Shown: positions 469 to 61,558 of the stretch, one piece after another
Numbering within the stretch: the first letter of the stretch is position 1
Layout of the letters: each line of letters opens with the position of its first letter
From: an uncultured Candidatus Saccharibacteria bacterium
GTDB lineage: Bacteria; Patescibacteriota; JABMPQ01; JAQVVF01
Assembly (NCBI GenBank): GCA_964574655.1
Contig: CAZNOH010000002.1
Span: 108,596-172,595 of the forward strand
Direction of reading: 5' to 3'
Length of the DNA: 64,000 nucleotides
Position numbers and translations under genes: made by a program
Notes under the pieces: model-generated
Databases searched by the model: none
Told to the model about the DNA's origin: nothing
The model's input: only the letters and a program-made list of their open reading frames with translations

Positions 469-490
469 GAAATAATAATTTTCAATAACC

Positions 491-593
491 AATTTCCAAT
501 TTACAATAAATTTTCAATTCTCAATTTTCAAACTCGAACGGAAAAGGGCTCATTGGAAATTGAGAATTGAAAATTTATTGTAAATTGGAAATT
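491..593. repeat. long inverted repeat: ~37-bp near-perfect arms (aatttccaatttacaataaattttcaattctcaattt / rc), ~29-nt loop with a GC core (aactcgaacgg)
   Basis: Read directly: 491-527 pairs with 557-593. It belongs to the caattt/aaattg word subfamily, also seen at 57081-57217. Confidence 0.85.
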
Positions 594-613
594 GTAAATT
601 ATAACAAAATTAT

Positions 614-1039
614 ATGAAAAAAATATCAATTTTCGTTGCAACATTATTAACAAGTCTTATAACATTTCAAGTAGTCTTTGCAAAATGGGGCCTTGAAAAT
701 TTAGCTGATACAGGCTTGCCACAAGACACACCAGGTGCATTTATCGCTAGAATAGTTAGTTACGCCCTAGGTTTTATTGGCATTATTTTAATAGTAATGA
801 TTATTTACGGCGGATTTTTGTATATGACAGGAGGAGGCAATGAAAAGCAAACAGAAACAGCAAAAAATGTCCTTACCTATGCAATCATTGGCGCTGTTGT
901 AATTTTTTCCGCTTACATTATTGCCAGACTAGTTATTTCTGCTTTGACCTCCGGAGCTACACCAGCTCCAACCACGCAGGAAACAACGCCACCAGCAACA
1001 ACATTGCCGACTACTACGCCACCGGCAACAACACCCTAG
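614..1039 (+). CDS. VirB2/TrbC-like T4SS pilin-module protein with a Thr/Pro-rich C-terminal tail
   Basis: Signal peptide MKKISIFVATLLTSLITFQVVFA. Two hydrophobic helices flank the loop YMTGGGNEKQTETAKNVLTYAIIG. The C-terminus is TPAPTTQETTPPATT. Confidence 0.7.
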   Translation: MKKISIFVATLLTSLITFQVVFAKWGLENLADTGLPQDTPGAFIARIVSYALGFIGIILIVMIIYGGFLYMTGGGNEKQTETAKNVLTYAIIGAVVIFSAYIIARLVISALTSGATPAPTTQETTPPATTLPTTTPPATTP

Positions 1040-1075
1040 TCTAGTCAATTTTAGTCCGTCAATCAAAGTTCTAGT

Positions 1076-2988: not shown

Positions 2989-4650
2989 ATGTTCAAAAAA
3001 CAGCCCATAATATTAGCAATGGCCATAATTATTTACGTAGCATTTTTCACAATGTTATGTTTTTTGAAATACGACAATTTTTTATATCAAGAATTAGATT
3101 TAGGCATAATTAATCAAGTTTTTTACAATTTAGCAAACAATATTTCATTTTACTCGGCAATACAAAATCAAAGCTATCTTGGCGACCATTTTTCGCCAAT
3201 CATCATTATATTATTGCCATTTTATTATTTTTTTCAAAGTCCAAAAACATTATTGATTTTGCAGACTATTATTTTAAGTTTAGCAGCAATTCCAATCTAT
3301 CTGATTGCAAAAGAAAAACTCAAAAACAAAAATCTAGCACTAATTGCCGGTCTAATTTTCTTAGCTAATCCAGCATTGCATAGCGTTAATTTATATGAGT
3401 TTAGTTTTTTGTCTTTTGCCGTTTTTTTATTGCTAGTTACATATCATTCATTCCAGAAGAAAGTGTTTTCTTATTTTCTTGTTTTCTTATTGCTATGTTT
3501 GCTAGTTCGTGAAGATCTCGCTCTAATTATATTCATGTTTGGAATCTATGCTTTATTAAAAAAACGCCAACTAAAATGGATTCTGCCACCAATGATTATA
3601 AGCATTATTTACTTTATTTTAAGTTTAAAAATAATTAGTTATTTTAATGTTGATAATAGTTACAAATTTATAATTCACTATTCATGGCTGGGGAATAGCA
3701 TCAGGGATTTATTCATTAATTTTTTTCTAAAATTTCCAGATATCTTTTTACACTTTCTAAATTTAGAAAACATAATATTTATTTTATACTTATTAATTCC
3801 AGTTTTTTTCTTACCAGTTTTTGGAAAAAAGACGCTTATATTTTTTATTCCAATTCTACTCCAATTTGGCTTGGCAAATTCTGGATTTAAAGGCATCTTT
3901 TTTACTCATTATCTATCATTATTTGTTCCATTTATTTTTATATCCGCAATCTATGGTGTTTCTCTAATTCTATCTCCAATACGTCTAATGCCATCTCGAA
4001 TTCAGTCATCAAAGATTTATAAGAAAATTTGTTTTGGTAAAATAAAAATAAATTTAGGCAGAAAAGAATACATTTTAATTTTATTTCTATTAATTTTTAT
4101 AACAATTTCTAGCAATATTGGTTTTAGTCCCTCATACAATTTGCCCAAAAAGCTAATAAAAGTTGATTCAGAAAAAGGTAAAAACAAACAAAATCTAGTT
4201 GATGAAATTCCAAAATGCCGATGCTCTAAAAATTACATTTTAGCCACAAATGATTTCTTGCCAGTCTTATCTAACAACGAAAATTTATACTCAGCTTTTT
4301 ATTTGGTAAAAGGAAAAAAGCAATATTCAAATCAGGATTATGATATTCCAAAATTAAATTATGCTTTAATCAATTATGAGCAATTTATTAAGAGCTGTCA
4401 GAATCAAGAAAATTTATCGCAGAATAAAAACATTTGTAAACAGGCAAAAAAGAGATTAAAAAATGTATTATTGCAAAACAAGCTTTCGCCAAAAAAAATA
4501 ATTGAAAATAATGTTTTATATTCTAGCAATTATCAATCTGAAAAAACATTTCAATCTTTGCAAAAAAAAGAATCAGATATTATCATTAATCTAAGCAAAA
4601 AGAAATATAATGTTATGCTTGACGAATCATCATTAGAAATTGAAAATTAA
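2989..4650 (+). CDS. polytopic membrane protein, DUF2079-like (putative GT-C-type envelope glycosyltransferase)
   Basis: At least 10 hydrophobic segments. N-terminal motifs LDLGIINQVFYNL and YLGDHFSPIIIILLP resemble the DUF2079 family. ATG 2989 is preferred because the upstream TTG start lies inside the palindromic element. Confidence 0.5.
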   Translation: MFKKQPIILAMAIIIYVAFFTMLCFLKYDNFLYQELDLGIINQVFYNLANNISFYSAIQNQSYLGDHFSPIIIILLPFYYFFQSPKTLLILQTIILSLAAIPIYLIAKEKLKNKNLALIAGLIFLANPALHSVNLYEFSFLSFAVFLLLVTYHSFQKKVFSYFLVFLLLCLLVREDLALIIFMFGIYALLKKRQLKWILPPMIISIIYFILSLKIISYFNVDNSYKFIIHYSWLGNSIRDLFINFFLKFPDIFLHFLNLENIIFILYLLIPVFFLPVFGKKTLIFFIPILLQFGLANSGFKGIFFTHYLSLFVPFIFISAIYGVSLILSPIRLMPSRIQSSKIYKKICFGKIKINLGRKEYILILFLLIFITISSNIGFSPSYNLPKKLIKVDSEKGKNKQNLVDEIPKCRCSKNYILATNDFLPVLSNNENLYSAFYLVKGKKQYSNQDYDIPKLNYALINYEQFIKSCQNQENLSQNKNICKQAKKRLKNVLLQNKLSPKKIIENNVLYSSNYQSEKTFQSLQKKESDIIINLSKKKYNVMLDESSLEIEN

Positions 4651-4653: not shown

Positions 4654-6246
4654 ATGTTAAGTAGCATTACGAAAAAAGAATGGCTCGTAGTTTCATTAAT
4701 TGCTTTAATAACAATTACTATTGTTATTGCGCCATATTTATTTGGCTATTTTACTACTCCTCAAAACATGATTTTTACTGGCGTTACTTTTGATCAGGAT
4801 TATTCCTATTTCTCCATGATGGAGCAAGCAAAAGAAGGAAAAATACTATTCAAAAATCTTTATACGTCAGAAGACCATCAGGCAATTTTTTTCAGGCCGT
4901 TGTTTTTATTTATGGGGCTATTTGCAAAATTTTTGCATCTGTCCAATTTTTTTGTTTTCCATTTATTTAAAATAATTTTTGTTGCCATTTTTATATTTTT
5001 GGCTTACAAGTTCATCTCAATCTTCTTTAGCGAAAAAATAAATCGCATAATTTGTTTGATAATTCTTCTATTTTCATCAGGTTTTGGTTTTTTAGGGCAG
5101 AGATTATTTAGTTATCTATCAACAGATCTTTGGATACCAGAATCACAGACCTTTGCTTCATTTTTCACTCAGCCTCATTTTGTTTTATCGCAAATTTTAA
5201 TTCTAGTTTGTTTTATTTGTTTATTAAAGAAAGAGCTTCGTTTTGCTCTCTTGGCAGGTCTGGCAAATTTTATTTTAGGTTTAGAGCATCCATTCGATTT
5301 GCCTGTCACGCTTTTAGTCCCATTTATTTATTTCATAATTTTATTCTTCTGGAAAAAAGAAAACAGAATTATGAATTATCTAATTTATTGCGCTATCTCA
5401 GTCGTACCAGTTATCTATCAATATTGGACAATGAAGATTGAGCCTATTGCCAAAGCCTGGAATGATCAAAACATTTTGAAATCGCCAGAAATTTTAGCCT
5501 GGATAGTCGGTTATGGCATCATCACAATCTTTGCAATTATTGGTTTCTTAAAATTTTTCAAAAATAAAAATAAAAATTTATTATTAATTAATATTTGGGC
5601 AATTGTTAATGTCTGTTTGCTATATTTGCCAGTCAATTTTCAAAGGCGAATGTCTGAAGGCTTGCATATTCCCTTGACTATTTTGGCAACTTTCGGTATT
5701 CTCATGGTTTATAATTTTTTGAATAAAAAAAGCATTAAGCACAAAATTCACACCCATATTCCAAAGATTGCTTTTTTATGGGTAATCGCTTTATCTCTGC
5801 CTTTTAGCAATATAAATCGCGTTGCTAATTATTTCAATAATTATGCTAAAGCAAAAGCATTGCCTTATTATTTCAGCCAGGACTTTTTTCAAGCTACAAA
5901 ATACTTTAACGACAATAAAATATTTGATCAAACAATTTTGGCTTCGCAAAAAAATGGTCCATTCATTTCAGGTCTGACAACAAACAGAGTTTATCTTGGA
6001 TTTGTTTTTCAGACCAAAGATTATTCTATCAAAAAAGATACTGTTGCATGGTTCTTCAAAGATAATCAGAAAATTAAACAAAAACAAGAATTTTTGCAGA
6101 AGAGAAATATCAAATATATCTTGTACGGTCCAGAAGAAAAAAAGCTTGGCAAAATTAATTTAGACAAAAAAGACTTCTTGGAAAAAGTCTATCAGAATGG
6201 TAGTTATGCTATTTACAAGATAAATGACAAAAAAACAAAAACTTAA
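4654..6246 (+). CDS. polytopic membrane protein with a C-terminal soluble domain (GT-C-like glycosyltransferase candidate)
   Basis: Many transmembrane segments followed by a hydrophilic ~150-aa tail. It lies 4 nt after the previous gene. Confidence 0.45.
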   Translation: MLSSITKKEWLVVSLIALITITIVIAPYLFGYFTTPQNMIFTGVTFDQDYSYFSMMEQAKEGKILFKNLYTSEDHQAIFFRPLFLFMGLFAKFLHLSNFFVFHLFKIIFVAIFIFLAYKFISIFFSEKINRIICLIILLFSSGFGFLGQRLFSYLSTDLWIPESQTFASFFTQPHFVLSQILILVCFICLLKKELRFALLAGLANFILGLEHPFDLPVTLLVPFIYFIILFFWKKENRIMNYLIYCAISVVPVIYQYWTMKIEPIAKAWNDQNILKSPEILAWIVGYGIITIFAIIGFLKFFKNKNKNLLLINIWAIVNVCLLYLPVNFQRRMSEGLHIPLTILATFGILMVYNFLNKKSIKHKIHTHIPKIAFLWVIALSLPFSNINRVANYFNNYAKAKALPYYFSQDFFQATKYFNDNKIFDQTILASQKNGPFISGLTTNRVYLGFVFQTKDYSIKKDTVAWFFKDNQKIKQKQEFLQKRNIKYILYGPEEKKLGKINLDKKDFLEKVYQNGSYAIYKINDKKTKT

Positions 6247-6355
6247 AAAACAAACAAAACACAAATAACAAAAAACAAACTATAATTCAAAGTTTGTTTT
6301 TTTTGTAGTTTGTAATTTGGAATTTGTTTGTTTTTTGTCTTTTTGTAATTTTATT
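6247..6355. repeat. intergenic palindromic element, acaaaca/tgtttgt word subfamily
   Basis: aaaaacaaacaaaacacaaataacaaaaaacaaact...agtttgttttttttgtagtttgtaatttggaatttgtttgttttttg. Same subfamily as 31454-31597. Confidence 0.75.
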
Positions 6356-6358
6356 TTT

Positions 6359-7945
6359 TTATTTCAGTTTATAAATTCTGCAATATTTTGAATCAAATAC
6401 TTTTTCAAATCTATCATCATCATTAAACATACTAAAAACTTTCTTATTCTTATTATTAACTAAAACATAATTAGATTTAAAGTCGTTTTTTATAGTCAAA
6501 TAAGCATCATCTTCTTCTTTTGAAATATTTTGCCATTTATTATACAAATCCAGATTATAATTATAAGTAAAAGTAGGGTCTAAGCCAAAGCCATAATAAT
6601 TTTCACTATTATTCAAAAATAATGGTGGAAAATCGCTCCAATCTAGATTCAAAATAATAGTATTTTTGGGTGTATTATTTTTAATCCAAAGAGCAGCTTT
6701 CTCTAAATCTGGCACATTTTTGGCCGAAGAATTGCCAATGCTGGCTTGTGCAGAAATCATATTGCTTACCCCAATAGAGATGATAGCAACTAAAACAAAA
6801 AGAAAAGCAAAAGACTTAAAAAATAAAAGAAAATATTGTTTTAGCCATGTTCTAATAGAATAAAAATGTTGTTTATTTTCTAAGACAATCAAAATTTGCT
6901 TAAACCATTTTTGATAATCTATTCTCTCCAATAAATCGCTCAAACAAAAAGCGCCAAAAAGTAAACAAAGAGGAACCATTAATTCAACAAATCTTTGTGA
7001 TCGCAGAGTCAAAGCAAAAAACAAAGTTGAAATAACAAAAAGAGTTATTTTAAAAGCAAATAGCTCTTTTTTTATTTTGTATTTTTTCAAAATAATATCT
7101 ATTATCAAAACAACAATTCCAGCAACATATGCGACAACTGCTAAAAAATTATTGGTCAAAAAATCCCAATCTTTGAACGGAGACCATTCTGCCCCAACTG
7201 GAATTTTTGTAAATGGCCCAGTTCCCAAAACTTGAATTTTCAAAAAAGAATAGAAATTTCTAGCATAGGGATTAGTCAAAATACTTAAAACAATTGCGCC
7301 TAAACAAATCAATATTTCTTTCCATTCAAATCTTTTTACAAAAATTAATCTAGTTAAATAAAAAATAAAAGCAAAAATAATTAAAAATATAAAACCGCCA
7401 TATAGCCAAACATAAAAGAAAGAAAACAAGGCAATCAAAAAATATTTCAGCCATTTAATTTTAAAATCATAATAAAAGCTAAACAAAATCATAATCAAAA
7501 AAAACAAAGATAAGGCAGGCACGCGGATCAAAATCATTCTAAACAAAAAAGAGCTTGAACTAAACAATAATAAAATCGCCCACCAAAAAGAAAAAGAAAT
7601 CTTATTTTTTTCTAGAATTAAATAAAAAGCCAGAACAGCTAAAGACGCAAACAGAATATCAGCAATCTTTGCGCCAATTATTGGATCTATTGCAACGAAA
7701 GGGATTAACAGAATATGAAACAAAAAATGATGATCAACGTAATGATCTTTCAAGGTAGAGAATTGCATCCACGGAAAATCTTGAAAAACAAATTTTCCGT
7801 CAATCATCATCTCCGTAATTTTGACATGATAATAAGAATCAGGACACAAAAATAATTCCAGCGAAAATTGCAGAATAGAAAAAACAGTTACAGCAATTAA
7901 GAAAACTAAAATATACTTTAAAATTTTGAAATTTCTTTGTTTCAT
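6359..7945 (-). CDS. polytopic membrane protein, ArnT/PMT-like GT-C glycosyltransferase candidate
   Basis: 12+ hydrophobic segments and a C-terminal periplasmic-type domain. Family assignment is by architecture only. Confidence 0.45.
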   Translation of the reverse strand: MKQRNFKILKYILVFLIAVTVFSILQFSLELFLCPDSYYHVKITEMMIDGKFVFQDFPWMQFSTLKDHYVDHHFLFHILLIPFVAIDPIIGAKIADILFASLAVLAFYLILEKNKISFSFWWAILLLFSSSSFLFRMILIRVPALSLFFLIMILFSFYYDFKIKWLKYFLIALFSFFYVWLYGGFIFLIIFAFIFYLTRLIFVKRFEWKEILICLGAIVLSILTNPYARNFYSFLKIQVLGTGPFTKIPVGAEWSPFKDWDFLTNNFLAVVAYVAGIVVLIIDIILKKYKIKKELFAFKITLFVISTLFFALTLRSQRFVELMVPLCLLFGAFCLSDLLERIDYQKWFKQILIVLENKQHFYSIRTWLKQYFLLFFKSFAFLFVLVAIISIGVSNMISAQASIGNSSAKNVPDLEKAALWIKNNTPKNTIILNLDWSDFPPLFLNNSENYYGFGLDPTFTYNYNLDLYNKWQNISKEEDDAYLTIKNDFKSNYVLVNNKNKKVFSMFNDDDRFEKVFDSKYCRIYKLK

Positions 7946-7963
7946 AAAATATATTCTAACATA

Positions 7964-8013
7964 AAAAAATCAACAAAAAAATCAACAAAAAAATCAACAA
8001 AAATGTTGATTTA
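7964..8013 (-). terminator. 3x 12-nt tandem repeat (aaaaaaatcaac) ending in an aaatcaac/gttgattt hairpin; terminator of the GC-rich operon
   Basis: On the minus strand it reads as stem aaatcaac-attttt-gttgattt followed by a T-rich run, with two extra gttgattttttt copies. Confidence 0.55.
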
Positions 8014-8838
8014 ACCAATGAGCCATTTTGGAGAAGAATGAAATTTTGGATCTTCGTGTTTAAAGCTAACCTCTACTGGAAATTCCTGTCCGTTGTCCCT
8101 GAAACGAAAGACAATTTTTCGGGTAAGTTCATAATAAGCTCTCAGTTTTTTATTTTCTTCTGCTCTTTCGAAGTCGTCACGAGTAACCGGTTTCTCACCA
8201 TACCATTTTGAAATAAAGCCATGAAAAACGCCGTTGGCAAGAACATCATCTACGGCAACTGTAACAACATAACTAATTTGTTGATCATTATGCAGAACTA
8301 AAGAATCAATTAATTTATCGTGCAGATAAACATCTAAAAAAATACCTTCCCACAAATGAGTTGCATCATTAAATCTATATAGTCTTAACAGTATCATCCT
8401 TACAGCGTTTTCTCCATCAACAACTCGATTAGTAATTTTTTTAATTACACGAACTTTTTCATCGAGAGCTAGACTATGTATCTTATGTCCTTTTTTTACA
8501 TCAGTACTGCCATTTTTCTTCGGATGTGCTTTCTTTTCGACAGGAATATCAAGATAAAGAGCATTATTACCTGCAAATACCCCCTTTGAATCAAAAACAA
8601 AAGCATCTGCGTGCACTCCGCAAACATCATTTGGAATAAGAATATAATCTGTTACCGCTTCTCCTGTCTCATCTGTCGTAATCGTTGTTACAATTTTACC
8701 ATCAATTTTTATAATCACATCTTTATTTACACAGGGAATGCCTTCGTCAGAAAACAGTAACACAGACAAATAGATTCTCCACTTTTCCAGTTGCGAATCC
8801 CATTCGTTTTTTAGATGTCTTAATTGTATTCGCATCAT
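8011..8838 (-). CDS. hypothetical protein, last gene of the GC-rich operon
   Basis: 275-aa ORF with clearly higher GC than its surroundings. It overlaps the upstream gene by 4 nt (ATGA). I see no recognisable motif. Confidence 0.55.
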   Translation of the reverse strand: MMRIQLRHLKNEWDSQLEKWRIYLSVLLFSDEGIPCVNKDVIIKIDGKIVTTITTDETGEAVTDYILIPNDVCGVHADAFVFDSKGVFAGNNALYLDIPVEKKAHPKKNGSTDVKKGHKIHSLALDEKVRVIKKITNRVVDGENAVRMILLRLYRFNDATHLWEGIFLDVYLHDKLIDSLVLHNDQQISYVVTVAVDDVLANGVFHGFISKWYGEKPVTRDDFERAEENKKLRAYYELTRKIVFRFRDNGQEFPVEVSFKHEDPKFHSSPKWLIG

Positions 8839-9950: not shown

Positions 9951-10118
9951 TTCTCCACCTCCTCTTTGGATTTGGTTGTAAAAGGACGATCAGTAATTGA
10001 CAGCGTATCATAATGGTTATTAATTATTTTGTCAACATTTACGAACGCATTTATATTCATTTTCCATAAAAAAACAGGTCAGTGACTCGCTTTCGCAAGT
10101 TTGACCTGTCAAAGAACG

Positions 10119-11039: not shown

Positions 11040-11059
11040 TTCATCCTCCCATATGTTTG

Positions 11060-11695: not shown

Positions 11696-11753
11696 GTTTC
11701 TCCTCCTCGTATTGTGAAGTTTCTTGCCAAATCTTGGACTTTGTAGTATAGCA

Positions 11754-11782
11754 TATGAGCATAAAAAAGTCAATGCAAAATA
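11754..11782 (-). promoter_or_regulatory. near-consensus sigma70 promoter (TTGACT-N17-TATACT) for the GC-rich operon
   Basis: The reverse complement reads ttgacttttttatgctcatatgctatact. This puts a TSS about 50 nt upstream of ATG 11695. Confidence 0.55.
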
Positions 11783-11875
11783 TGAATTAGGGCTTATTTT
11801 AGGAAAAAAAGCCTCAAAATAGCCAAAAAGACTGGATTTTATTAAAGCTTTGAAGTATACTTTGAATATATTCAA

Positions 11876-12010: not shown

Positions 12011-12014
12011 ATGT

Positions 12015-12097: not shown

Positions 12098-12272
12098 AAT
12101 AAATTAACATAGAGTTTTCCGCAGAACCCTGCCTTCATGGCAGGGCGAGTCTCTTCCTCGGCAACTAATAATTCTCAAATCGAAAATTATTAATGAGTTC
12201 AAATATCAAATTATAATTATCAAAAGAGAAGCGATTAACGCTTCTTTTTCTTGCTCAATAAATTTTACGATT

Positions 12273-14050: not shown

Positions 14051-14055
14051 TTTCC

Positions 14056-51870: not shown

Positions 51871-53286
51871 ATGTTAAAAATAGACCCAAACAATTTAAAA
51901 AATCCACAAGAATTTGAAAAAATATCCAAAGAAGCGCAGGAGTGCGATCATTTTAATTATGTTGGTGAATATGGAGTGAGATCTTATCAAACAATGTTAG
52001 CAATTGACGAAGCTCTAGAAAAAAATCCTCAATTCAAAAATGAAGACCAAGAACTATACAAAAAATATTGCGATCTTAGTCTTTATCTAAAATTTCATAA
52101 TTTAGAACGCTTACCAGAAGATAATAATGTTTTAGAATTACTAGAAAAAAATTTTTGTGATGCTTTAAAGAAAAATCTTAATTTAGAAGAATGGCTCAGA
52201 GCAAAAGTAATGATGATCGGTCTTCCTTTTCGAAATGAATTTCTCGAAAAGACACTTTCTGCCATCAAAAAAAATCTGCAAAAAATTGGCACAAAAAACA
52301 TTATAATTAGCAATAAAGAAGTAGAACCAACTATTCAAAATTGGATCAAAGATTATGAATATACTTCTGAGCCAGGCATTCACTCTTTGCTTGAACGCAA
52401 TGACTATTTTATCCATTCTAAAAACGTTAGAAATTTAAATGAAGATGAAAAAAAGCAAATCAAAATGCTTTTGCAACTTTATGATAAATTACATCTGAAA
52501 GTAACTGATATTGGAGGCTTGGGGAGCTATCCGCCGTCAATGTACGGCATTGATCTAAAAAAGCCAGTTGCAGTCGAAGATTTTACTACTAAAGAATTAC
52601 AAAAAGTTAACAAATCAGTTCAGGAATCAGCCGGAACTGTTCATCCCATTCCTTTTCCAACTTCAAAAACAGAAAAACGAGAAAAAATGCTAGCTGAAAA
52701 CAAAAAAGAAGCTGAAAAAGCAATGCAAGGCGCTGTTGATATAAAAAAGCTAGAAGCACAAGAGCCAGGAAATAAATTTATCACGTCTTTGAAAAAAATT
52801 GGCAAACCAAGAAAAAAAAATGAAAAAATAAAAACAGCAGAAACAAAAGTAATTAAAGCAGTGCCTGAAAAAGAAGTTGTTGAGGAAATTTCAAAACCAG
52901 AAACAGAGCTACCAAATCCTCCTAAAAAAGTTTTTCATAAAGAACACAAAGTTTTAACATCCTCAAAGCCAGTTTCAGCAGAAATCAGCAAAATTAAAAA
53001 TATAAATTTGCTAGAATTCAAAAAACTTGGCGCAACAGCAAAACAAGCTGCTCAAGTTTTGCTTAACAATATCCGCGAAGTTGCGAAAACTCATGATGAG
53101 CGAAAAGCAGCGCAAGAAAATTTTATGAAAAGTCCTTTATTCAAATTATACGAAGCAATCGCAAATCAAAGCACATCAGAAAAGAAATCAGTCAGTCAGA
53201 TAGCAGAGGATAGAAAAAAACAAGGAACAGAGTTTCTTACTGAAGACGAATATATTGCGGTTAAAAGCATCAGTAAGCTAATTTAA
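51871..53286 (+). CDS. hypothetical charged (K/E-rich) protein in the T4SS-like cluster
   Basis: 471-aa ORF, no recognisable motif. Confidence 0.5.
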   Translation: MLKIDPNNLKNPQEFEKISKEAQECDHFNYVGEYGVRSYQTMLAIDEALEKNPQFKNEDQELYKKYCDLSLYLKFHNLERLPEDNNVLELLEKNFCDALKKNLNLEEWLRAKVMMIGLPFRNEFLEKTLSAIKKNLQKIGTKNIIISNKEVEPTIQNWIKDYEYTSEPGIHSLLERNDYFIHSKNVRNLNEDEKKQIKMLLQLYDKLHLKVTDIGGLGSYPPSMYGIDLKKPVAVEDFTTKELQKVNKSVQESAGTVHPIPFPTSKTEKREKMLAENKKEAEKAMQGAVDIKKLEAQEPGNKFITSLKKIGKPRKKNEKIKTAETKVIKAVPEKEVVEEISKPETELPNPPKKVFHKEHKVLTSSKPVSAEISKIKNINLLEFKKLGATAKQAAQVLLNNIREVAKTHDERKAAQENFMKSPLFKLYEAIANQSTSEKKSVSQIAEDRKKQGTEFLTEDEYIAVKSISKLI

Positions 53287-53458
53287 AATTTCGAATTTTA
53301 AATTTTAAATAAATTTCGAAATAAGAATTTTAAAATTCGTTGCAGAGTTTTAAGCTACTGGTTCTGCATAAAATGGTAAAGAAGCAAGTAGTAGTCATTA
53401 GAAATTAAAGAATTTAAAATTTATTTTAAATTTGAAATTATAAATTTGAAATTAACGT
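53287..53458. repeat. intergenic palindromic element, aaattt/ttaaaat word subfamily
   Basis: aaaatttcgaattttaaattttaaataaatttcgaaataagaattttaaaattcg...attagaaattaaagaatttaaaatttattttaaatttgaaattataaatttgaaatt. Confidence 0.7.
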
Positions 53459-53893
53459 ATGCAATACCCAATTCCACAATTTGTTGAAATAGAGGACCAG
53501 ATTATTGGCCCGCTCACTCTCAAACAGTTTTTCTTTTTGCTTGGTGGTGGAATATTTCTATTGATTTCCTGGTCTTTTGTTGATCTCGCATTATTTATTT
53601 TTTTAGCAGTTATCGTTGGTTTCATAGTCGTGCCATTGGCTTTTGTCAAGCCATACGGACGTCCGTTGACAAATTATCTTTCCGCAGTTTTTAAATATAT
53701 ACTTGGCCCAAAGATACTAGTCTGGCACAAAAGTAGCAGAGCTCCAAGAGTAAAAGCTTATGATCTTGCAAATAAAAAGAAAGGTCCTGAAAAAATTACA
53801 ATCGGCGAAAAAAAGTATACACCGAGCAGTATTCACCGATTGGCAAGGCAATTAGATTTTAAGACAGTAATGAGCGAAGACGAAAAGAAGTAA
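53459..53893 (+). CDS. PrgI-family / VirB3-like small T4SS membrane protein
   Basis: MQYPIPQFVEIEDQIIGPLTLKQFFFLLGGGIFLLI, then a second TM. This matches the PrgI-family N-terminal signature and precedes VirB4. Confidence 0.55.
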   Translation: MQYPIPQFVEIEDQIIGPLTLKQFFFLLGGGIFLLISWSFVDLALFIFLAVIVGFIVVPLAFVKPYGRPLTNYLSAVFKYILGPKILVWHKSSRAPRVKAYDLANKKKGPEKITIGEKKYTPSSIHRLARQLDFKTVMSEDEKK

Positions 53894-53956
53894 TTTTAAA
53901 TTTCGAATTTTAAATTTTAAATAAATTTTAAAGTTTCTAATTTTAAAATAATATAA
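53894..53956. repeat. short intergenic palindromic element (ttttaaattt words)
   Basis: aattttaaatttcgaattttaaattttaaataaattttaaagtttctaattttaaaat. Confidence 0.6.
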
Positions 53957-54313
53957 ATGCTTAAAGAAAAAGATAAGCAATACGATTTAGAAGAAAGAAC
54001 CGCAAAATTTGCAGAAGGCATAATCGATCTTTGCCAAGGCCTACCGCAAACAGCAATTACTAAGTCAACGATAAGCCAGATAATTCGTTCAAGCTCAAGT
54101 ATCGGCGCAAACTATTGCGAAGCAAACGGCGCAAGCTCAAAAAAAGATTTTAGGAACAAAATATTTATCTGTAAGAAAGAAGCTCAGGAAACACGATATT
54201 GGATAAGAATATTGGCTAAATGTTTACCAAACAAAAAAGAAGACTTGCGAAATCATTGGAAGGAGTGTCAAGAATTAACACTAATTTTTGGTAAAATTGC
54301 ATCAAAGTTATAG
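53957..54313 (+). CDS. four-helix-bundle protein (TIGR02436, 23S-rRNA-IVS-type family)
   Basis: About 118 aa. EERTAKFAEGIIDLCQGLP...IIRSSSSIGANYCEANGASSKKDFRNKIFICKKEAQETRYWIRIL. Confidence 0.7.
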   Translation: MLKEKDKQYDLEERTAKFAEGIIDLCQGLPQTAITKSTISQIIRSSSSIGANYCEANGASSKKDFRNKIFICKKEAQETRYWIRILAKCLPNKKEDLRNHWKECQELTLIFGKIASKL

Positions 54314-54377
54314 CAATTTAAAATTAAGTAATTTGAAATTTAATTAAAATTCGAAATTTTAAATTTAAAATTGAGTA
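54314..54377. repeat. short intergenic palindromic element
   Basis: caatttaaaattaagtaatttgaaatttaattaaaattcgaaattttaaatttaaaattg. Confidence 0.6.
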
Positions 54378-55121
54378 ATGCTTAAAAAAGAAAAAAAAGA
54401 AGAAAAGAAAGTTGAAGTAAAACAAGAAGAAGAAACAATGCTTTCAAGTAAAGCAGCAAAGAAAGAAGAAGAGTCAACTCAGAAATTTTTGAATGTCGCT
54501 GGAATCAGAGATGGAATTATAATTCTAAAAAACAAAGCATTGCGGGCAATAGTGATGTGTTCATCAATTAATTTTGCTTTGATGTCTGAAGATGAACAAA
54601 AAGCTAAGGTTTTTGGCTATCAAGATTTTTTAAATTCATTAAATTTTCCAGTGCAAATCGTTATCCAAACTAGAAAGCTAAACATCGCAGGCTATCTAGA
54701 AAAAGTCAAAGAAGCTGAAAGAATGCAAGACAATGAATTGTTAAGAATGCAGACAGCTGAATACGCTGAATTTATAAAATCAATGGTAGAATTAGGAAAT
54801 ATTACTACTTCTCATTATTATGTTTCAATACCTTATTCTCCAGCTGGAATTGAAGCAACTGAATCAATAATGGATAAAATCAAAGGAATTATTTCGCCAG
54901 CGTCAAAAATAAAAGAAGAACAAGTTGGTTTCCAAAAACAACAAGAGGAGCTTTTGCTTCGCGTAAATACAGTAATCAGCGGACTTGGAGGAGTTGGAAT
55001 TCAATCCGCGCAACTTAATACTCAAGAAGTAGTTGAGCTCTTGTATTCATGGTATAATCCAGATGAAAGCACTACTGAAATACTTGGAGAATTGGAAAAG
55101 CTTAAGATTGAACAAGCCTAA
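54378..55121 (+). CDS. VirB4/TrbE/CagE-family protein, N-terminal domain only (split gene, part 1)
   Basis: FLNVAGIRDGIIILKNKALRAIVMCSSINFALMSEDEQKAKVFGYQDFLNSLNFPVQIVIQTRKL resembles the VirB4 N-terminal (CagE_TrbE_VirB) region. The ORF ends at a stop before the repeat element. Confidence 0.55.
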   Translation: MLKKEKKEEKKVEVKQEEETMLSSKAAKKEEESTQKFLNVAGIRDGIIILKNKALRAIVMCSSINFALMSEDEQKAKVFGYQDFLNSLNFPVQIVIQTRKLNIAGYLEKVKEAERMQDNELLRMQTAEYAEFIKSMVELGNITTSHYYVSIPYSPAGIEATESIMDKIKGIISPASKIKEEQVGFQKQQEELLLRVNTVISGLGGVGIQSAQLNTQEVVELLYSWYNPDESTTEILGELEKLKIEQA

Positions 55122-55244
55122 GAACAATTTTAAATTATAAAATTTTAAAACTAGAAAAACGAAACTAGTCAAAAAATGGTTTTGAAATTAAATATTTAAA
55201 ATTTATTTGAAATTTGAAATTGAAAATTTGAAATTAGCAAAACT
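55122..55244. repeat. intergenic palindromic element separating the two VirB4 parts
   Basis: caattttaaattataaaattttaaaactagaaaaacgaaactagtcaaaaaatggttttgaaattaaatatttaaaatttatttgaaatttgaaattgaaaatttgaaatt. Confidence 0.7.
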
Positions 55245-57080
55245 ATGCAAGATAAAGACTTACCAATCGGTAAAAAAAATATTGAAAATATAAGTCAAGC
55301 CGAGCAAGAAGAGATTCTTAAGGCTGAAGAAATTTACAGAAAGGGTCTGGTTTCGATTCGCGATATTATTGCGCCAAGTGCTTTGCAAGTCAATCCAAAT
55401 TATCTTAAATTAGGTGATAAGTTCGTCAGAACTATATTCATTTTTACTTATCCTCGTTTTGTCAATACTGGCTGGTTTGCTCCAGTCATTAATATGAATA
55501 TTGAAGCTGATATGGCAATGTATATTTCACCTGTTGAATCAGAAAAAATATTAAAAACATTAAAAAATAAAGTAGGACAAATTCAGTCAACTATTGCCGG
55601 AAAACAGGAAAAAGGTGATGTCCGAGATCCAATGCTAGAAACAGCATTAAATGATGTTGAAGAACTTCGTGATCGTTTAATTCAGGGCACAGAAAGATTT
55701 TTCCATTTTGCATTATATATCACTCTTTATGAGAATTCTGAAAAAAAACTAGATAAAACCACCAAAGAAATAGAGGATCTATTAGGTCAAAGACTGATCT
55801 ATTCAAAGCGAGCATTTTTTCAAGCTGAACAAGGATTTAATACCACAACGCCATTAGGTCTTGACGAGCTTGGCGTTCTTAACAATTTTAATACTTCACC
55901 TTTATCAACTAGTTTTCCATTTGTTTCTTCGGAATTGACTTCTGATGAAGGCATTCTTTATGGAATCAACCGCCACAATAATAGCTTGATTTTATTTGAT
56001 CGTTTCTCCTTGCCAAATGCCAATTCAGTAGTATTCGCCACATCTGGTGCTGGTAAAAGTTACGCCGTTAAATTAGAAATATTAAGGTCTTTAATGTTTG
56101 GTACAGAAGTTATAGTCATTGATCCAGAAAATGAATATAAATATTTATGTGAATCAGTCGGCGGAACATTTTTGAAAATGTCTCTAGAGTCAGAATACAG
56201 ATTGAATCCTTTTGATCTGCCATCTGCAATTTCTGGAATGAAAACCAAAGATATTATTCGGTCAGCAGTTATTAATATAAAAGGTTTGCTTAGAATTATG
56301 CTTGGTCGTTTGACAAAAGAAGAAGATGCTTTGCTTGATAGCGCAATTATTCAAACTTACGCCAAAAAAGATATAACTCCAGATTCTGATTTATCAAAAA
56401 TAGAAGTTCCAACAATGAAAGATTTGCAAGAAATTCTTGAAGGCATGCAAGGAGCAGAAGACATTGTTCCAAGAATAAAAAAATATACAGAAGGAACTTT
56501 TGCCGGTCTTTTGAATCAGGCAACCAATGTCCAAATTGACAATCCATTTGTTGTTTTTAGCATTAGAGATTTAGAGGACGAGTTACGTCCAATTGCCATG
56601 TATGTTATTTTAAATCACATCTGGAATATCGTCAGAGCTCAAATGAAAAAAAGAATTCTAGTTGTCGATGAAGCATGGTGGATGATGCAATATGAAGAAT
56701 CAGCCAGATTTATGTATGGCATTGCCAAAAGAGGAAGAAAATATTATCTAGGCACAACAACAATTTCTCAAGATGTTAATGATTTCTTAACATCAGATTA
56801 TGGAAAAGCAATCGTAACAAATTCCGCATTGCAATTGTTATTAAAGCAGTCTCCAGCCTCTATTGATTTATTAAAAAAAACTTTTTATTTAACTGAAGAA
56901 GAAAAATATTTATTATTAGAATCAGATGTTGGTGAAGGAATTTTCTTTGCAGGTTCAAAACATGTTGCAATAAAAATAGTTGCCTCATATTCTGAAGATC
57001 AGATTATTACAACAGATCCAAAACAATTACTAGAGCTAGAACAGGCTAAGAAAAATTACGAAGAAGAGCAAAACGCATAA
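55245..57080 (+). CDS. VirB4/TrbE-family T4SS ATPase, central and C-terminal ATPase part (split gene, part 2)
   Basis: IIAPSALQVNPNYLKLGDKFVRTIFIFTYPRFV, Walker A FATSGAGKSYAV, Walker B ILVVDEAWWMM. Confidence 0.65.
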   Translation: MQDKDLPIGKKNIENISQAEQEEILKAEEIYRKGLVSIRDIIAPSALQVNPNYLKLGDKFVRTIFIFTYPRFVNTGWFAPVINMNIEADMAMYISPVESEKILKTLKNKVGQIQSTIAGKQEKGDVRDPMLETALNDVEELRDRLIQGTERFFHFALYITLYENSEKKLDKTTKEIEDLLGQRLIYSKRAFFQAEQGFNTTTPLGLDELGVLNNFNTSPLSTSFPFVSSELTSDEGILYGINRHNNSLILFDRFSLPNANSVVFATSGAGKSYAVKLEILRSLMFGTEVIVIDPENEYKYLCESVGGTFLKMSLESEYRLNPFDLPSAISGMKTKDIIRSAVINIKGLLRIMLGRLTKEEDALLDSAIIQTYAKKDITPDSDLSKIEVPTMKDLQEILEGMQGAEDIVPRIKKYTEGTFAGLLNQATNVQIDNPFVVFSIRDLEDELRPIAMYVILNHIWNIVRAQMKKRILVVDEAWWMMQYEESARFMYGIAKRGRKYYLGTTTISQDVNDFLTSDYGKAIVTNSALQLLLKQSPASIDLLKKTFYLTEEEKYLLLESDVGEGIFFAGSKHVAIKIVASYSEDQIITTDPKQLLELEQAKKNYEEEQNA

Positions 57081-57217
57081 TGAATTTACAATCTTCAATA
57101 ATCAATTTTCAATAAATTTCCAATTTACAATTTCCAAATCGCGAAAGTTTTTGAAAAATTGATCATTGATAATTTATTGAAAATTGGTAATTGAAAATTA
57201 GAAATTAATTTATAACT
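57081..57217. repeat. intergenic palindromic element, caattt/aaattg subfamily (sister of 491-593)
   Basis: caattttcaataaatttccaatttacaatttccaaatcgcgaaagtttttgaaaaattgatcattgataatttattgaaaattggtaattgaaaattag. Confidence 0.8.
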
Positions 57218-57886: not shown

Positions 57887-58020
57887 AAATAATAATACGA
57901 ATGCGGATACGAATAATGCAAATGTTGCGAATTGCGAATCGTCGTATTCGTAATTCGTATCATTCGCATCATTCGCATTATTCGTACGTTTATTCGTATT
58001 ATGTATAGACGATTTATAAA
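57887..58020. repeat. intergenic palindromic element, tacgaat/attcgta subfamily (centre gcgaattgcgaatcgtcgtattcg)
   Basis: taatacgaatgcggatacgaataatgcaaatgttgcgaattgcgaatcgtcgtattcgtaattcgtatcattcgcatcattcgcattattcgtacgtttattcgtattat. Confidence 0.8.
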
Positions 58021-58046: not shown

Positions 58047-58697
58047 ATGAAAAATATATCTAGCAATATTAACAGAGAACTATTTTATTATGAAAAACTA
58101 AAGGAGATTAAACACAAAAAAAAATCATCCCCTGATTTTGGGAATTACAAAAACTCTTTTTCAACTAATTATGGAGCGCATCTCATTAATCAAAAAAACA
58201 TTATTAAATTTGATGGCGCTGAAGCAGTTGAGGATTATGAGCAAGATGTAGAATCAATGCCCAATACTGTTGCCAGAGGTCAAGAAGGTGGTAATTATGA
58301 GCAATTCAATCGGCTGAAGAACGAAGCAATGAAAAGAGCAAAAAAAAGCAAAGGCGCAACTGAAAAAGCCACGAAAGTTGCCAAAGCTGCAAAACAGCTT
58401 AAGAGCATGAAAAATATAAAAAATTTATATAATTTAGTAAAAATTGCCTTTACCGTTGATCTTGTAACAGTTGTAGTCACATTAGTAATTATGTTCATTC
58501 AATTCTTCGGTGGAAATGTTTTTAAATCAAAATACATTCCTCCGCTTGGTAAAATAGAATTGCTTCTCTTTATTCCAATTCTACTCTCTGCTTCAGCCTC
58601 TACGCTTGTTTTTGTACTACCGACGATTATAGGCACAGGATTGCTTGGCAGTGCCTATGCAGGCCTTGCAAATTTAATTGGTAATGTTGGTATATAA
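58047..58697 (+). CDS. hypothetical protein with C-terminal TM helices (T4SS-like cluster)
   Basis: Lys-rich middle. C-terminal hydrophobic segments VTVVVTLVIMFIQFF and LLLFIPILLSASASTLVFVLPTIIGTGLLG. Confidence 0.5.
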   Translation: MKNISSNINRELFYYEKLKEIKHKKKSSPDFGNYKNSFSTNYGAHLINQKNIIKFDGAEAVEDYEQDVESMPNTVARGQEGGNYEQFNRLKNEAMKRAKKSKGATEKATKVAKAAKQLKSMKNIKNLYNLVKIAFTVDLVTVVVTLVIMFIQFFGGNVFKSKYIPPLGKIELLLFIPILLSASASTLVFVLPTIIGTGLLGSAYAGLANLIGNVGI

Positions 58698-58700
58698 AAT

Positions 58701-60185
58701 ATGAACAAAAACAAAATAATCATTTTTCTAGGTCTATTATTGTTATTAATAGGCTTCAACCAATCCTTCGCGCAAGAAGAAGGCGAGTTTGTGGTGCCTG
58801 ATGAGTTCAAAAAGATTATCAATATTGATCCAAACAACATAACTGGCAAGGATATCATAAGCATCATGCCCTTGAGTGTTACGCTAGACTATTCACCACA
58901 GCCAGTTTCTGCAACTAGCCCAGTTAAAGTAACAGCCCAAGTAATTAGTAGCACTAAATCAGATGGTGTTAGTTTTCGTTGGTTTTTGGATGGTCAAGAA
59001 AAAAAAGCTAGCAATTCTGTTTTTCAGTTTAATATGAACGAGGGGTTAGTGAATCAAGACTTGCGTTGTGGCGATTATCGGGAAGTGAAAGTTGAAGCAA
59101 TAAATTCTAATACCAAAGAAAAAGCTATTTCTATTTTAAAAATTCCAATTGGATTAAATCTATCATTTAACAAGAGATCTATTGGCGTTGCTGACCAAAA
59201 CAATCCAAATACCATAAATTTTAATTTATACAAAGCTGATATATCAACTGACAGTATTGCTTTGCAAGTTCCTGATATTTTTCTAAAACCAACGTCTACT
59301 CAAAATCAATTTCGTTTCAGTGACATTGTGCAAGTTGAAGCCATTGATTTGAGAAATACATACAATAATCAGGCTTGCGGTTCAACATCAAGTTATACTA
59401 ATTTAGATAGCTATTTAAATAGTCTTACTTATCAATGGTCTTATAATGGAACTTCACAGCAAGGAAAAAGTGGAAAAGGCGAAAATTTTAAGAAAGCTTC
59501 ATTCGTTATTAGCACTTTGCCATCGCAATTAATTCAAAATGACTTAGCATCCTGCGGTGCTTCAGAATCTCAGAATATTAATATCGTTGGTCTGACAATT
59601 ACTGATTCTTATGGCAAGGTATTGGCCCAAAAAGAAGAATCTCTAGATGTTATTGCTCCTCAAATCAATGTCAAGCCTATTTGTGGCGCATTTGGAAAGA
59701 ATATTCAATGCGTTAATATCAATTCCACAAACCTAAAATCATCTTACGGTGTTTCCCAAAGTTATCAGCTCAATCCAAATCAAGAAATCAATTTGCAAGC
59801 AAGTTTAGGTAGCTTTCAACCTTCTCAAAAATTAGATATAACATGGAAGGTTAATAACCAAGAGATTGATAATAAAATAGTTGAAGATCCCAATACGCCA
59901 TATTTTACTTCACCAAGCATCAAGATGGGAAGTCAAATTCAAATTGTTGAAGTAAGCGTTATAAATAGTGTTTATAACTCTAATCAAACAGAAAATGCTT
60001 CCCAAAAAATTGTCTTAACGCCAAGCCAAGAAAGAGCGCAGGTATCTACAGCTGGAACACTTGGGTCACTGCAAAAATTCTTGCCGAAAAACTTTAAAAG
60101 TTTATATAATTATATTGCAGTTGCCGGTTTGTTAGGAATAATTATTTTATTAATAACCATAAAAGAAAAGAAAAAAAATGGATAG
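58701..60185 (+). CDS. secreted protein with a C-terminal TM anchor (T4SS-like cluster)
   Basis: Signal peptide MNKNKIIIFLGLLLLLIGFNQSFA and C-terminal IAVAGLLGIIILLITI. Confidence 0.5.
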   Translation: MNKNKIIIFLGLLLLLIGFNQSFAQEEGEFVVPDEFKKIINIDPNNITGKDIISIMPLSVTLDYSPQPVSATSPVKVTAQVISSTKSDGVSFRWFLDGQEKKASNSVFQFNMNEGLVNQDLRCGDYREVKVEAINSNTKEKAISILKIPIGLNLSFNKRSIGVADQNNPNTINFNLYKADISTDSIALQVPDIFLKPTSTQNQFRFSDIVQVEAIDLRNTYNNQACGSTSSYTNLDSYLNSLTYQWSYNGTSQQGKSGKGENFKKASFVISTLPSQLIQNDLASCGASESQNINIVGLTITDSYGKVLAQKEESLDVIAPQINVKPICGAFGKNIQCVNINSTNLKSSYGVSQSYQLNPNQEINLQASLGSFQPSQKLDITWKVNNQEIDNKIVEDPNTPYFTSPSIKMGSQIQIVEVSVINSVYNSNQTENASQKIVLTPSQERAQVSTAGTLGSLQKFLPKNFKSLYNYIAVAGLLGIIILLITIKEKKKNG

Positions 60186-61419
60186 AAAAAGAATTTTAAT
60201 TATTATCGGAATAATTGCATTGATTATTGCTTTCGCAGTAACAATTTATTTTGTAATTTTTCGTCAACAAAAAAAAGTAGCTTCAGATCTTCCGCCTTTG
60301 ACAACAGAAGAGCAACAAAGATTAAAATTAACAACTGAAGAAAGGCAAGCAGGCATCACTGAAGATAAAAAAATTCAGCAATATGTCGCTGAAAAAAGGC
60401 AGGAAATTGCCGTACAAAAAGCAGTAACTGATACAAACAAGTACAAAGTCATTCCAGTCTTAAACCAAAAAACAATCAGTCCAACATTATCAGCTGATTT
60501 CAGCAAGCTTATTTTTTATAGTCCAGAAAATAAAGATTTTTATGTCGCAAATTTAGACGGCAGCCAGCCGTCTCCAATTACATCAAGCGGAATTGACAAA
60601 GTCTATGATATATCATGGTCCAAGAAAAAAGATCGCGCAGTAATGACATTGTCTGACAATCAGGGTTTGACTAGAAATTATTTAATCTTTGACATTAATA
60701 ATCAAAAACAAACAACAGTTGATTCCAGTATCAAATCTCCGACATTGTCGCCTGATGGTGAAAAAATCGCTTATTTATTCTTAGATAAAGCATCCGGCAC
60801 CTCAAATATTTCTGTCTCAAACCTTGACGGTTCTAACTGGAACAGCGTTTCTCCTTTTGAAGGCGAATTTCCAATTATCAATTGGAATTTAGAATCAAAA
60901 TTAATTTATTATAGTAAGCCTGATACTCAAAATAATGCCATTGCCTTTGCCGCCAATATTATTGGCAAGAGCTTCAATCAGTTAGTTAGCAATTATGGTC
61001 TTAATGTCAATGTATCAAATGATGGTAATAAAATTGTTTATTCTGGTCAAAATGTTGCAAGTGCGACAACAACGAATTTGCAATTTTATGATATGCAGGC
61101 TAGCAAAAATATTGATTTAGGCGTTCAAACTTTTGCTGATAAGTGTACTTGGTTGCCAGATAACAAAAATTTAATTTGCGCTATCCCAGAAAATTTAAGC
61201 AAATGTATGATTATGCCAGATGCCTATAATAATTATAATTTTATTTCCAAAGATTCTTTCTATATAGTTGATACTCAAAATAATAAGACCACAAAATTAG
61301 CAAGTACTAGTCAATTCTCGCAAGACTATGATGTCTACAAGCCTTTTATGCTTGGCGAAAAAATAATGTATTTCACAAGACGGCAGGATGGATTATTGTA
61401 TGCGTTTGTAATACCATGA
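60178..61419 (+). CDS. N-terminally anchored protein with a TolB/PD40-like beta-propeller-type periplasmic domain
   Basis: TM at residues 6-27. Repeated segments such as LSPDGEKIAYLF, NLDGSNWNSVSP and VSNDGNKIVYSG resemble PD40 blades. Confidence 0.45.
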   Translation: MDRKRILIIIGIIALIIAFAVTIYFVIFRQQKKVASDLPPLTTEEQQRLKLTTEERQAGITEDKKIQQYVAEKRQEIAVQKAVTDTNKYKVIPVLNQKTISPTLSADFSKLIFYSPENKDFYVANLDGSQPSPITSSGIDKVYDISWSKKKDRAVMTLSDNQGLTRNYLIFDINNQKQTTVDSSIKSPTLSPDGEKIAYLFLDKASGTSNISVSNLDGSNWNSVSPFEGEFPIINWNLESKLIYYSKPDTQNNAIAFAANIIGKSFNQLVSNYGLNVNVSNDGNKIVYSGQNVASATTTNLQFYDMQASKNIDLGVQTFADKCTWLPDNKNLICAIPENLSKCMIMPDAYNNYNFISKDSFYIVDTQNNKTTKLASTSQFSQDYDVYKPFMLGEKIMYFTRRQDGLLYAFVIP

Positions 61420-61558
61420 AGTTAAAACACAAAATCCTAAATTCTAAATACTAAACAAATTCAAATTAAAAAAATAAAAATCCAAAAGTTGTTTTATATT
61501 TTGAGTTTTGGACATTTAGATTTGTTTAGGATTTAGAATTTAGTGCTTAGGATTTTTT
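61420..61558. repeat. intergenic palindromic element, ctaaat/atttag subfamily
   Basis: aaatcctaaattctaaatactaaacaaattcaaattaaaaaaataaaaatccaaaagttgttttatattttgagttttggacatttagatttgtttaggatttagaatttagtgcttaggatt. Confidence 0.75.

Follow-up and report, generated by a model that had tools for sequence, protein, structure and literature searches.

Intergenic AT-rich palindromes of a Patescibacteria genome are dispersed fold-back repeats with a probable tie to PF05635 cassettes

What are the long AT-rich palindromes that lie between the genes of a 64,000-nt stretch of an uncultured Candidatus Saccharibacteria genome (contig CAZNOH010000002.1, positions 108,596 to 172,595; hereafter the window)? 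The gene content of the window is that of a member of the Patescibacteria (Candidate Phyla Radiation, CPR), with housekeeping genes (recF, dciA, a c-di-AMP receptor gene, infB, rbfA, cdaA, ybbR, clpP, rny, ymdB, galT, hupA, pcrA/uvrD and ksgA), type-IV-secretion-like genes and pilin paralogues; the window gene encoding a DHH/DHHA1 phosphoesterase is labelled nrnA here. The window contains no rRNA gene, and all copies of the palindromes are located between protein-coding genes or beside a tRNA gene. Its only gathering-score match to Rfam is tRNA-Leu, and no palindrome matches an Rfam family. With a probability slightly above one half (about 0.55), the palindromes are fold-back repeats whose arms are arrays of short words, mostly heptamers, and which are counterparts, lacking an open reading frame (ORF) and similar to MITEs (transposable elements of the miniature inverted-repeat type), of cassettes that carry a PF05635 gene and resemble the intervening sequences (IVSs) of rRNA genes. 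The new point is the tie of intergenic palindromes to PF05635/IVS cassettes, of which the literature searched gave no earlier account and which the initial annotation of this DNA had missed.

The simplest answer would be that the spacers, being repetitive and only 15-32% GC, are low-complexity sequence that folds by chance. The 23 intervals named as palindromic in the initial annotation were folded with ViennaRNA and each compared with 100 dinucleotide shuffles. A single long hairpin with z from -4.5 to -14.6 was obtained for 16 of them (beginning at 491, 2869, 11876, 30214, 31454, 31898, 32420, 34516, 34965, 36072, 36965, 41437, 42360, 57081, 57887 and 61420), so that the claimed folding holds for most of the list; three were intermediate (6247, z -2.6; 53287, z -3.4; 55122, z -3.1) and four weak (2279, z -1.1; 43582, z -2.3; 53894, z -1.0; 54314, z -0.7). 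Extension of the interval at 6247 to 6222-6359 gives 58-nt arms that are 76% complementary. The intervals 53894-53956 and 54314-54377 are the two arms of a single cassette around the gene at 53957-54313: they are not palindromic alone, as had been supposed, but pair with each other across the gene. By a gapless scan the window has 20 long inverted repeats, of which 18 are AT-rich and two GC-rich, compared with none or one in each of five local shuffles. Applied to 1.84 Mb of other loci, the same scan counted 43 of the AT-rich kind (~0.23 per 10 kb); the AT-rich density of the window, about 3 per 10 kb, is ~12 times higher. High densities elsewhere were those of close relatives and of some other Patescibacteria. 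The z-scores, the counts in shuffles and the conservation of orthologous copies described below refute the chance explanation, to which practically no weight is left. The statement that nearly every spacer consists of an inverted repeat was nevertheless too strong: the window has 42 spacers that are 40 nt or longer, and about half contain a palindrome.

The elements are 60-140 nt long and clustered at 0-6 kb, 30-44 kb and 53-62 kb of the window. Their arms are 40-66 nt long and 71-98% complementary according to a repeat finder, and several extend a few codons into the upstream gene (34942-34964, for example). The word subfamilies proposed earlier are real: arm autocorrelation is maximal at a lag of 7 (0.504 versus 0.366 in shuffled arms), and the period is 7 in 14 of 20 elements, 9 in family A and 11 in family F. 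The GC-rich centre that had also been proposed is a tendency only; CpG is indeed enriched (0.048 per nt in the central 30 nt versus 0.014 in the arms), and among 39 elements of the window and its relatives 25 have CG in the central 30 nt, but only 12 have CGACG or CGTCG.

The copies are distributed among families according to the arm word; palindromes up to position 32022 were assigned no strand, and those from 32435 onwards are placed on the plus strand. Family A (TACGAAT words) is represented at 2861-2998 (core 2875-2984, from fold and family alignment), 32435-32537 and 57892-58002, the last being 89% identical to the second over 82 nt. Family B (CTAAAT) includes a degenerate copy between pilin-like genes (2279-2382), a copy directly 5' of tRNA-Leu (11870-12001, from the fold; tRNA 12014-12098), the rbfA-nrnA and nrnA-cdaA copies (34942-35083 and 36071-36197), and those of the ymdB-galT junction (42362-42494) and 61431-61551, both from fold and family alignment. 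Family C (CAATTT words) is found at 490-594 (42-nt arms, 98% complementary, z -14.6) and 57079-57210 (fold and family alignment), family D (TTCTAATTT) at 31885-32022 between a convergent pair of genes and 36956-37092 between cdaA and ybbR, and family E (ACAAACA) at 6222-6359 between another convergent pair (inverted-repeat scan and family alignment) and 31459-31588 between recF and dciA. Family F (TAGCAAAT, period ~11) is found at 41446-41558 between rny and ymdB, with a truncated copy at 43643-43738 that is 84% identical to it, including a non-repetitive loop common to both. Family G comprises an ORF-less element of 43-nt arms around 100 nt (53274-53459) and a weak palindrome with a word array (55126-55244, z -3.1). 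There are also palindromes of CAAGATA words (30209-30327) and of GCCAATCT/TAGCA words (34520-34624).

Identity between copies at different loci, loops included, extends over the full length (A 81-89%, B 70-79%, D 81%, E 76%, F 84%), and families C, D and G are interrelated. The families recur in L001 (the metagenome-assembled genome (MAG) 'Patescibacteria group bacterium STF1_73', the closest genome record, with IF-2 89% identical), in L137 (with L081 a close relative on a 645-kb contig; IF-2 91% and CdaA 88% identical) and in the more distant relative L003 (58%), and even an Azambacteria contig has TACGAAT-word palindromes, in its rpoB-rpoC spacer. As same-family copies at different loci are 70-89% similar over their full length, they descend from common sources, and the elements are dispersed repeats, not independent local inventions. 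The initial annotation was therefore right to propose a structured, dispersed superfamily similar to MITEs and to repetitive extragenic palindromic (REP) sequences, with a conserved architecture and differing arm words, but only half right in setting this against simple common descent, which does account for the copies within a family. Nested elements in L003 (12463-12564) and L137 (18617-18870), in which a GC-rich hairpin is situated at the centre of an AT-rich word palindrome, suggest that palindrome centres are preferred insertion sites.

Families G, C and D connect the palindromes to a protein-coding cassette. [quoted passage not shown] The loci examined contain 14 distinct PF05635 genes; 10 have inverted short-word arrays on both sides (z 5-18 versus shuffles), and a further two are marginal. 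In four distinct genomes, including L014, L104/L037 (one contig, present in two collections) and L137, none of the 20-24 genes other than the PF05635 gene has such flanks. Six cassettes were aligned that belong to different CPR genomes and have different surroundings (ftsE and ftsX on either side; a position before rpoB; a pil operon; a position before a HIT-family gene followed by aspS). Their homology takes in the ORF and both arms (left ATTTTGAATTTCGAATTTTGAAT..., right its complement) and does not continue beyond the ends of the arms. The cassettes are about 480-500 nt in size and always co-directional with the host operon. The ORF-less element at 53274-53459 matches the adjacent cassette in both its left arm (97% over 38 nt) and its right arm (85% over 52 nt). 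Similarly, arms of GTTAGAC words are found on both sides of a PF05635 gene in L140/L141 and, as a palindrome with no ORF, in L137; arms of CAATTTT words enclose a PF05635 gene in L014, whereas in the window they make up families C and D, which have no ORF. A protein search returned thousands of close PF05635 homologues in CPR genomes.

Two further ideas about the cassettes were not sustained. The ACGACGA motif of palindrome centres could be taken for a relic of the PF05635 5' region in L137 only, and so not in general; and phage vectors gained no support from viral contigs, in which a single-protein scan had no match and a profile scan found one distant PF05635 gene, flanked by word arms. A Portnoybacteria contig (L148/L150) has three PF05635-family genes (311-916, 4001-4369 and 7904-8293) within 8 kb of a pilM/pilO/pilB operon; only one of the three genes has word-built arms, and these are marginal. 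Downstream of the window cassette, a VirB4-type ATPase is split into two ORFs (54378-55121 and 55245-57080, corresponding to NF045975 positions 97-283 and 276-893), and the 123-nt spacer carries the weak family G palindrome. Either the gene was broken where an element inserted, or the split is ancestral and of the TrsD/TrsE type.

Comparison with relatives reveals rapid turnover: the same junctions are empty, filled, or filled by another family. L001 is collinear with the window from 26.7 to 42.4 kb at ~80-83% nucleotide identity. At recF-dciA, the 130-nt palindrome of the window corresponds to a 5-nt spacer in L001 and to a CCAAAT-family palindrome in L137/L081; upstream of recF, the window palindrome, with a classical terminator on one side and the recF start codon on the other, is absent from L001 and replaced by a palindrome of GTTAGAC words in L137/L081; and the family A element of the infB leader is likewise absent from L001 and replaced by one of TAGTAAC words in L137/L081 (none of these three junctions is covered in L002, a relative at 76%). 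The infB-rbfA junction, with GCCAATCT/TAGCA words in the window, has the CCAAAT family in L001 and L137/L081 and a 4-nt spacer in L002. Between rny and ymdB, family F of the window is matched by family C in L001 and by a different arrangement with an extra gene in L137/L081, L002 not being covered. The rbfA-nrnA and cdaA-ybbR junctions, too, are occupied by different families among the window, L001 and L137/L081, the former having a palindrome of some family, with differing sequences, in the window, L001, L002, L003 and L137. At nrnA-cdaA, the family B palindrome of the window and L001 gives way to a PF05635 gene cassette in L137-L141. The family D element of the convergent pair (31885-32022) has unrelated sequence at its position in L001. 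Gain, loss and replacement of elements thus take place inside operons, in the few nucleotides that separate the stop codon of one gene from the start of the next.

Placement is precise: the stem begins a median of ~4 nt after the stop codon (sometimes within the last codons) and ends a median of ~9 nt before the next ATG. The initial annotation held that the palindromes replace conventional terminators and promoters, and this did not stand. Classical terminators with a GC stem and a T run are present at operon boundaries (30159-30178; 39111-39126, a bidirectional hairpin without assigned strand that is the probable end of the infB...clpP operon; 44064-44090), and the best sigma-70-like promoter of the region (TTGACA-17-TAAAAT, 32403-32431, plus strand, an 11/12 match conserved in L001 and L081) is just 5' of the infB-leader palindrome, which would place that palindrome within the transcript. 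The AT palindromes are located between such sites, that is, inside operons, and the genes from infB to clpP most simply form one putative transcription unit with five of them. Promoter-like sites are not enriched (82 versus 69.6 +/- 7.8), and none of the AT palindromes scored as a terminator, the combination of a GC-rich stem and a T run being absent, although a T run follows about three of the elements in ++ orientation. Furthermore, close relatives do without an element at the same junction, as in the 5-nt recF-dciA spacer of L001.

A leaderless-mRNA promoter in the 3' arm was also considered, since some arms contain TTTAGA-17-TAGAAT (9/12), but the distances to the ATG are inconsistent and there is no enrichment; nor do palindromes substitute for Shine-Dalgarno sites, most genes having no such site whether or not a palindrome precedes them. 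Gene starts in the window are of two classes, the majority without any Shine-Dalgarno sequence and a minority with a very strong GGAGG (8011-11039, 13004, 17382-20809, 22665 and 39158), many of the latter belonging to short ORFs or to the higher-GC region at 8-16 kb. In L001, near-identical T-rich word arrays (TTGACTTTTTAATTTT...TTTTTTAAC) directly precede the ATG at 7850-7882 and 10005-10042, the palindrome-free junctions upstream of recF and infB; these could be half-elements or a shared leaderless-mRNA promoter (TTGACT-17-TACTTT/GATTTT, 5-6 nt, ATG).

Copies that are retained evolve slowly. Three palindromes have orthologs in L001, at rbfA-nrnA (91% identical), nrnA-cdaA (83-84%) and cdaA-ybbR (93-94%, with an identical loop), and the loops are identical in two of the three. 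Four-fold degenerate sites are 54% identical between the two genomes (n=1018) and non-palindromic spacers 74-78%. Recent recombination does not explain the difference, because third codon positions in the 150 nt to each side of the orthologous palindromes (0.58-0.76 identical) are as diverged as those in the rest of the genes. The consensus stems of the orthologs contain three compensatory double substitutions (T-A to C-G), as seen at rbfA-nrnA, and eight one-sided changes that preserve a standard pair by exchange between Watson-Crick and wobble pairs, together with word-level insertions and deletions between orthologs. RNAalifold found only one clearly covarying pair among family B paralogues, which align poorly. 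Retained copies are under purifying selection, with co-variation between the arms.

Such constraint would also be expected if the host had made the palindromes in place as intercistronic RNA signals, by slippage of heptamers and inverted duplication or template switching, with a hairpin that terminates, attenuates, stabilizes or is processed, and with PF05635 genes that landed in existing loops. In favor of this are the slow, co-varying evolution relative to synonymous sites, the word-level indels, which indicate that slippage occurs, and the presence of a palindrome at rbfA-nrnA in five genomes despite differing sequences. It is unlikely nonetheless: non-repetitive loops and full-length order are common to different loci at 76-89%, which needs dispersal; the arms accompany the PF05635 ORF from one genome and context to another; close relatives have empty junctions; terminator features, present in the classical terminators found elsewhere, are missing from the AT palindromes; and there is no G·U bias, as described next.

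Several observations weigh against the palindromes being derivatives of PF05635 cassettes that are neutralized as RNA. ORF-bearing counterparts were found for family G, families C/D and the GTTAGAC words, and none for families A, B, E and F. Flanking arms are missing from two to four of the PF05635 genes, and neighbouring spacers of the window all carry family G words, so that the match to the cassette flank is not unique there. Loop sequences are kept between orthologs, which a pure 'stem for RNase III' model leaves unexplained. There is no transposase or other mobility gene in the window. No target-site duplication rises above the null (best flanking direct repeat, mean 3.9 nt versus 3.5 +/- 1.4), with the qualification that AT-rich boundaries are fuzzy and very short duplications (TA) possible. 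Finally, selection on a sense-strand RNA should produce an excess of G·U pairs, and none was found: wobble-type mismatches in co-directional contexts comprise 40 of G·U type and 39 of A·C type, and those in cassettes 29 and 24, without strand asymmetry.

Fold energies, too, are equal on both strands, and the symmetry thus appears to be kept at the DNA level or on two strands; it may be maintained by the mobility mechanism or by arm-to-arm correction. This makes a DNA-level role, as cruciforms or as heptad arrays bound by a protein (a nucleoid protein such as the HU encoded at 43746-44039, or a heptad-polymerizing repressor) in supercoil management, domain organization or replication, a live rival, if a rather improbable one. 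The symmetry, the heptad periodicity, the conserved CpG-containing centres and the retention of sequence as well as pairing between orthologs all agree with it. On the other hand, at least seven unrelated word families would require as many binding specificities, a chromatin or replication role would not predict strict stop-start placement, co-directional genes or co-oriented cassettes, junctions can be empty in relatives, and no partner protein was identified.

The lack of target-site duplications and of a transposase bears as well on the view that the elements are ordinary MITEs, deletion derivatives of an insertion sequence with a DDE transposase elsewhere in the genome, moved by cut-and-paste and only incidentally associated with PF05635. 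Terminal inverted repeats, multiple families, insertion polymorphism and intergenic location are all typical of MITEs. However, the inverted repeat is not confined to short ends but runs the full length of the element, no transposase is encoded in the 64-kb window or in ~60 kb of close relatives, and PF05635 is the only ORF repeatedly found between such arms; a conventional MITE origin is accordingly quite unlikely.

If the palindromes are indeed counterparts of PF05635 cassettes, they would be co-transcribed with the operon and would fold back, bringing the upstream stop codon and the downstream start together and restoring a compact junction. The stem would then probably be cut by RNase III, by analogy with rRNA IVSs (the absent G·U bias lends this step no support), with the effect either of punctuating the polycistronic mRNA or of doing no more than excising the insert. 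Folding and removal by RNase III would make insertion nearly harmless and in places useful. A wider proposal, put forward tentatively and with the balance of probability against it, is that PF05635 cassettes and their ORF-less derivatives constitute an unrecognized mobile class, 'transcript-embedded fold-back elements', which has spread among Patescibacteria and, as IVSs, into the rRNA genes of many bacteria; its members would insert without target duplication at stop-start junctions and rRNA helix tips and be rendered neutral as RNA through folding and RNase III, with an Avd-like PF05635 pentamer as the mobility or maintenance factor and with derivatives selectively maintained as cistron punctuation in some CPR lineages. 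The origin and movement of rRNA IVSs and the role of the abundant PF05635 proteins have been standing questions since about 1990. If the intergenic palindromes are elements of the IVS kind, genomes such as this one hold dozens of copies, with and without the ORF, at defined polymorphic sites, where mobility, RNA processing and binding of the protein to the arms would become directly testable. In the minimal genomes of CPR bacteria, in which most genes have no Shine-Dalgarno site, operons may be punctuated by long hairpins. The elements would also account for fragmentation of MAGs at such repeats and for the lead of CPR in inverted-repeat surveys, some CPR phyla having the highest inverted-repeat density of all phyla (PMC13155455).

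Other features of the window were noted. A second, GC-rich class of hairpin is found at 38304-38332, 44108-44185, 46426-46513 and ~22550-22610, and also in L065 (12459-12574). The hairpins at 38304, 44108 and 46426 have ends of the GTAGA...TCTAC type with CTAAAG/CTTTAG sub-palindromes and are REP-like; these GTAG...CTAC hairpins resemble REPs more than the AT palindromes do. The one at 38304 is a clean 37-nt insertion relative to the 16-nt ybbR-clpP spacer of L001, and the one at 46426 resembles an element in a Moraniibacteriota contig. A small ORF after clpP (38927 to ~39055), which starts with MKKITNILRS, has a hydrophobic middle as read by eye and is well conserved as DNA in L001, probably encodes an unannotated membrane peptide. 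A 125-aa ORF on the minus strand (39158-39535), which has a strong Shine-Dalgarno site and matches no Pfam family, has no counterpart in the collinear part of L001 and is an insertion between clpP and rny. About 200 nt 5' of the annotated rny start (window ~39700-39903; L001 ~16600-16811) are ~90% conserved; they may form a structured leader, or they may encode additional N-terminal residues of RNase Y. A small protein, secreted or membrane-bound, is encoded by four paralogues in tandem at 614-2803; they share a conserved 'GGxxYxTAxG...KILxYAIIG' core, similar to pilins of type IV secretion systems, and some are separated by palindromes. The block at 8000-16000, with GC up to 0.35-0.48, strongly negative GC skew, strong Shine-Dalgarno sites and few palindromes, may have been laterally acquired.

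How, then, do the palindromes compare with known systems? No prior description of such elements in CPR was found in the searchable literature, in agreement with the initial annotation, which did not recognize them as a described class. An integron attC array is not a suitable comparison, the genes being syntenic housekeeping genes (recF, infB, rbfA, cdaA, clpP, rny) with no integrase in the window, and CRISPR-like arrays found no support. The palindromic invasions of organelle genomes (Volvox, the RHE of sponges, the palindromic microsatellites of Fusarium) are similar in that AT-rich hairpin repeats, some of microsatellite-like build, fill the intergenic DNA of small genomes; they differ in their hosts, in having no PF05635 link and in not being restricted to stop-start junctions. 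REPs and bacterial interspersed mosaic elements (BIMEs) are intergenic palindromes for which roles in mRNA stability and DNA topology have been proposed (PMC3333891, PMC3733652). Like them, the elements of the window are high-copy intergenic palindromes inside operons without target duplication; unlike them, they are 60-140 nt long and 15-32% GC, REPs being 20-40 nt, GC-rich and tagged with GTAG or CGTC, and no RAYT transposase was seen in the window.

ERIC/IRU, YPAL and the Correia elements of Neisseria are transcribed, palindromic, MITE-like repeats of 100-170 bp that fold in mRNA and are processed by RNases. They are whole-length imperfect palindromes of similar size, located in transcribed intergenic regions of operons and variably present among strains. 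Each of their families, however, has one consensus and a TA duplication (with 26-bp ends and a site for integration host factor in Correia elements), in contrast to the lack of a duplication, the tandem-heptamer arms, the many word families and the PF05635 association observed here. In early mRNA of phage T7, an RNase III hairpin separates nearly every pair of cistrons; these hairpins are short, unique and non-mobile, so that they are a possible functional analogue without the repeats, word structure or mobility of the elements described here. With MITEs, the elements have in common terminal inverted repeats, small size, many dispersed copies and insertion polymorphism; they do not fit the classical MITE, no target duplication having been detected and no transposase lying in the window, and their ORF-bearing counterpart carries PF05635 in place of a known transposase.

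The closest resemblance is to the IVSs of 23S and 16S rRNA genes, present in Leptospira, Coxiella and Salmonella among others. Those of Coxiella, Leptospira and others are described as selfish elements whose terminal inverted repeats form a stem cleaved by RNase III and which have an S23p (PF05635) ORF in the loop, tandem heptamers of strain-variable number and a sporadic distribution (PMC4990558). PF05635 ORFs and short ORF-less insertions are also known from CPR rRNA genes (PMC11270868). The elements of the window are not strict members of this class because of their location: the host is an mRNA operon and the site a stop-start junction, not helices 9, 25 or 45. They are also present in very high copy number with many word families coexisting, and their excision by RNase III is presumed from the analogy. 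They nevertheless share with rRNA IVSs terminal inverted repeats that pair into a long stem, heptamer tandem repeats, a sporadic distribution among close relatives, a position embedded in and co-oriented with the host transcript, and the coexistence of a form with PF05635 in the loop (53894-54377) and a short ORF-less form (53274-53459).

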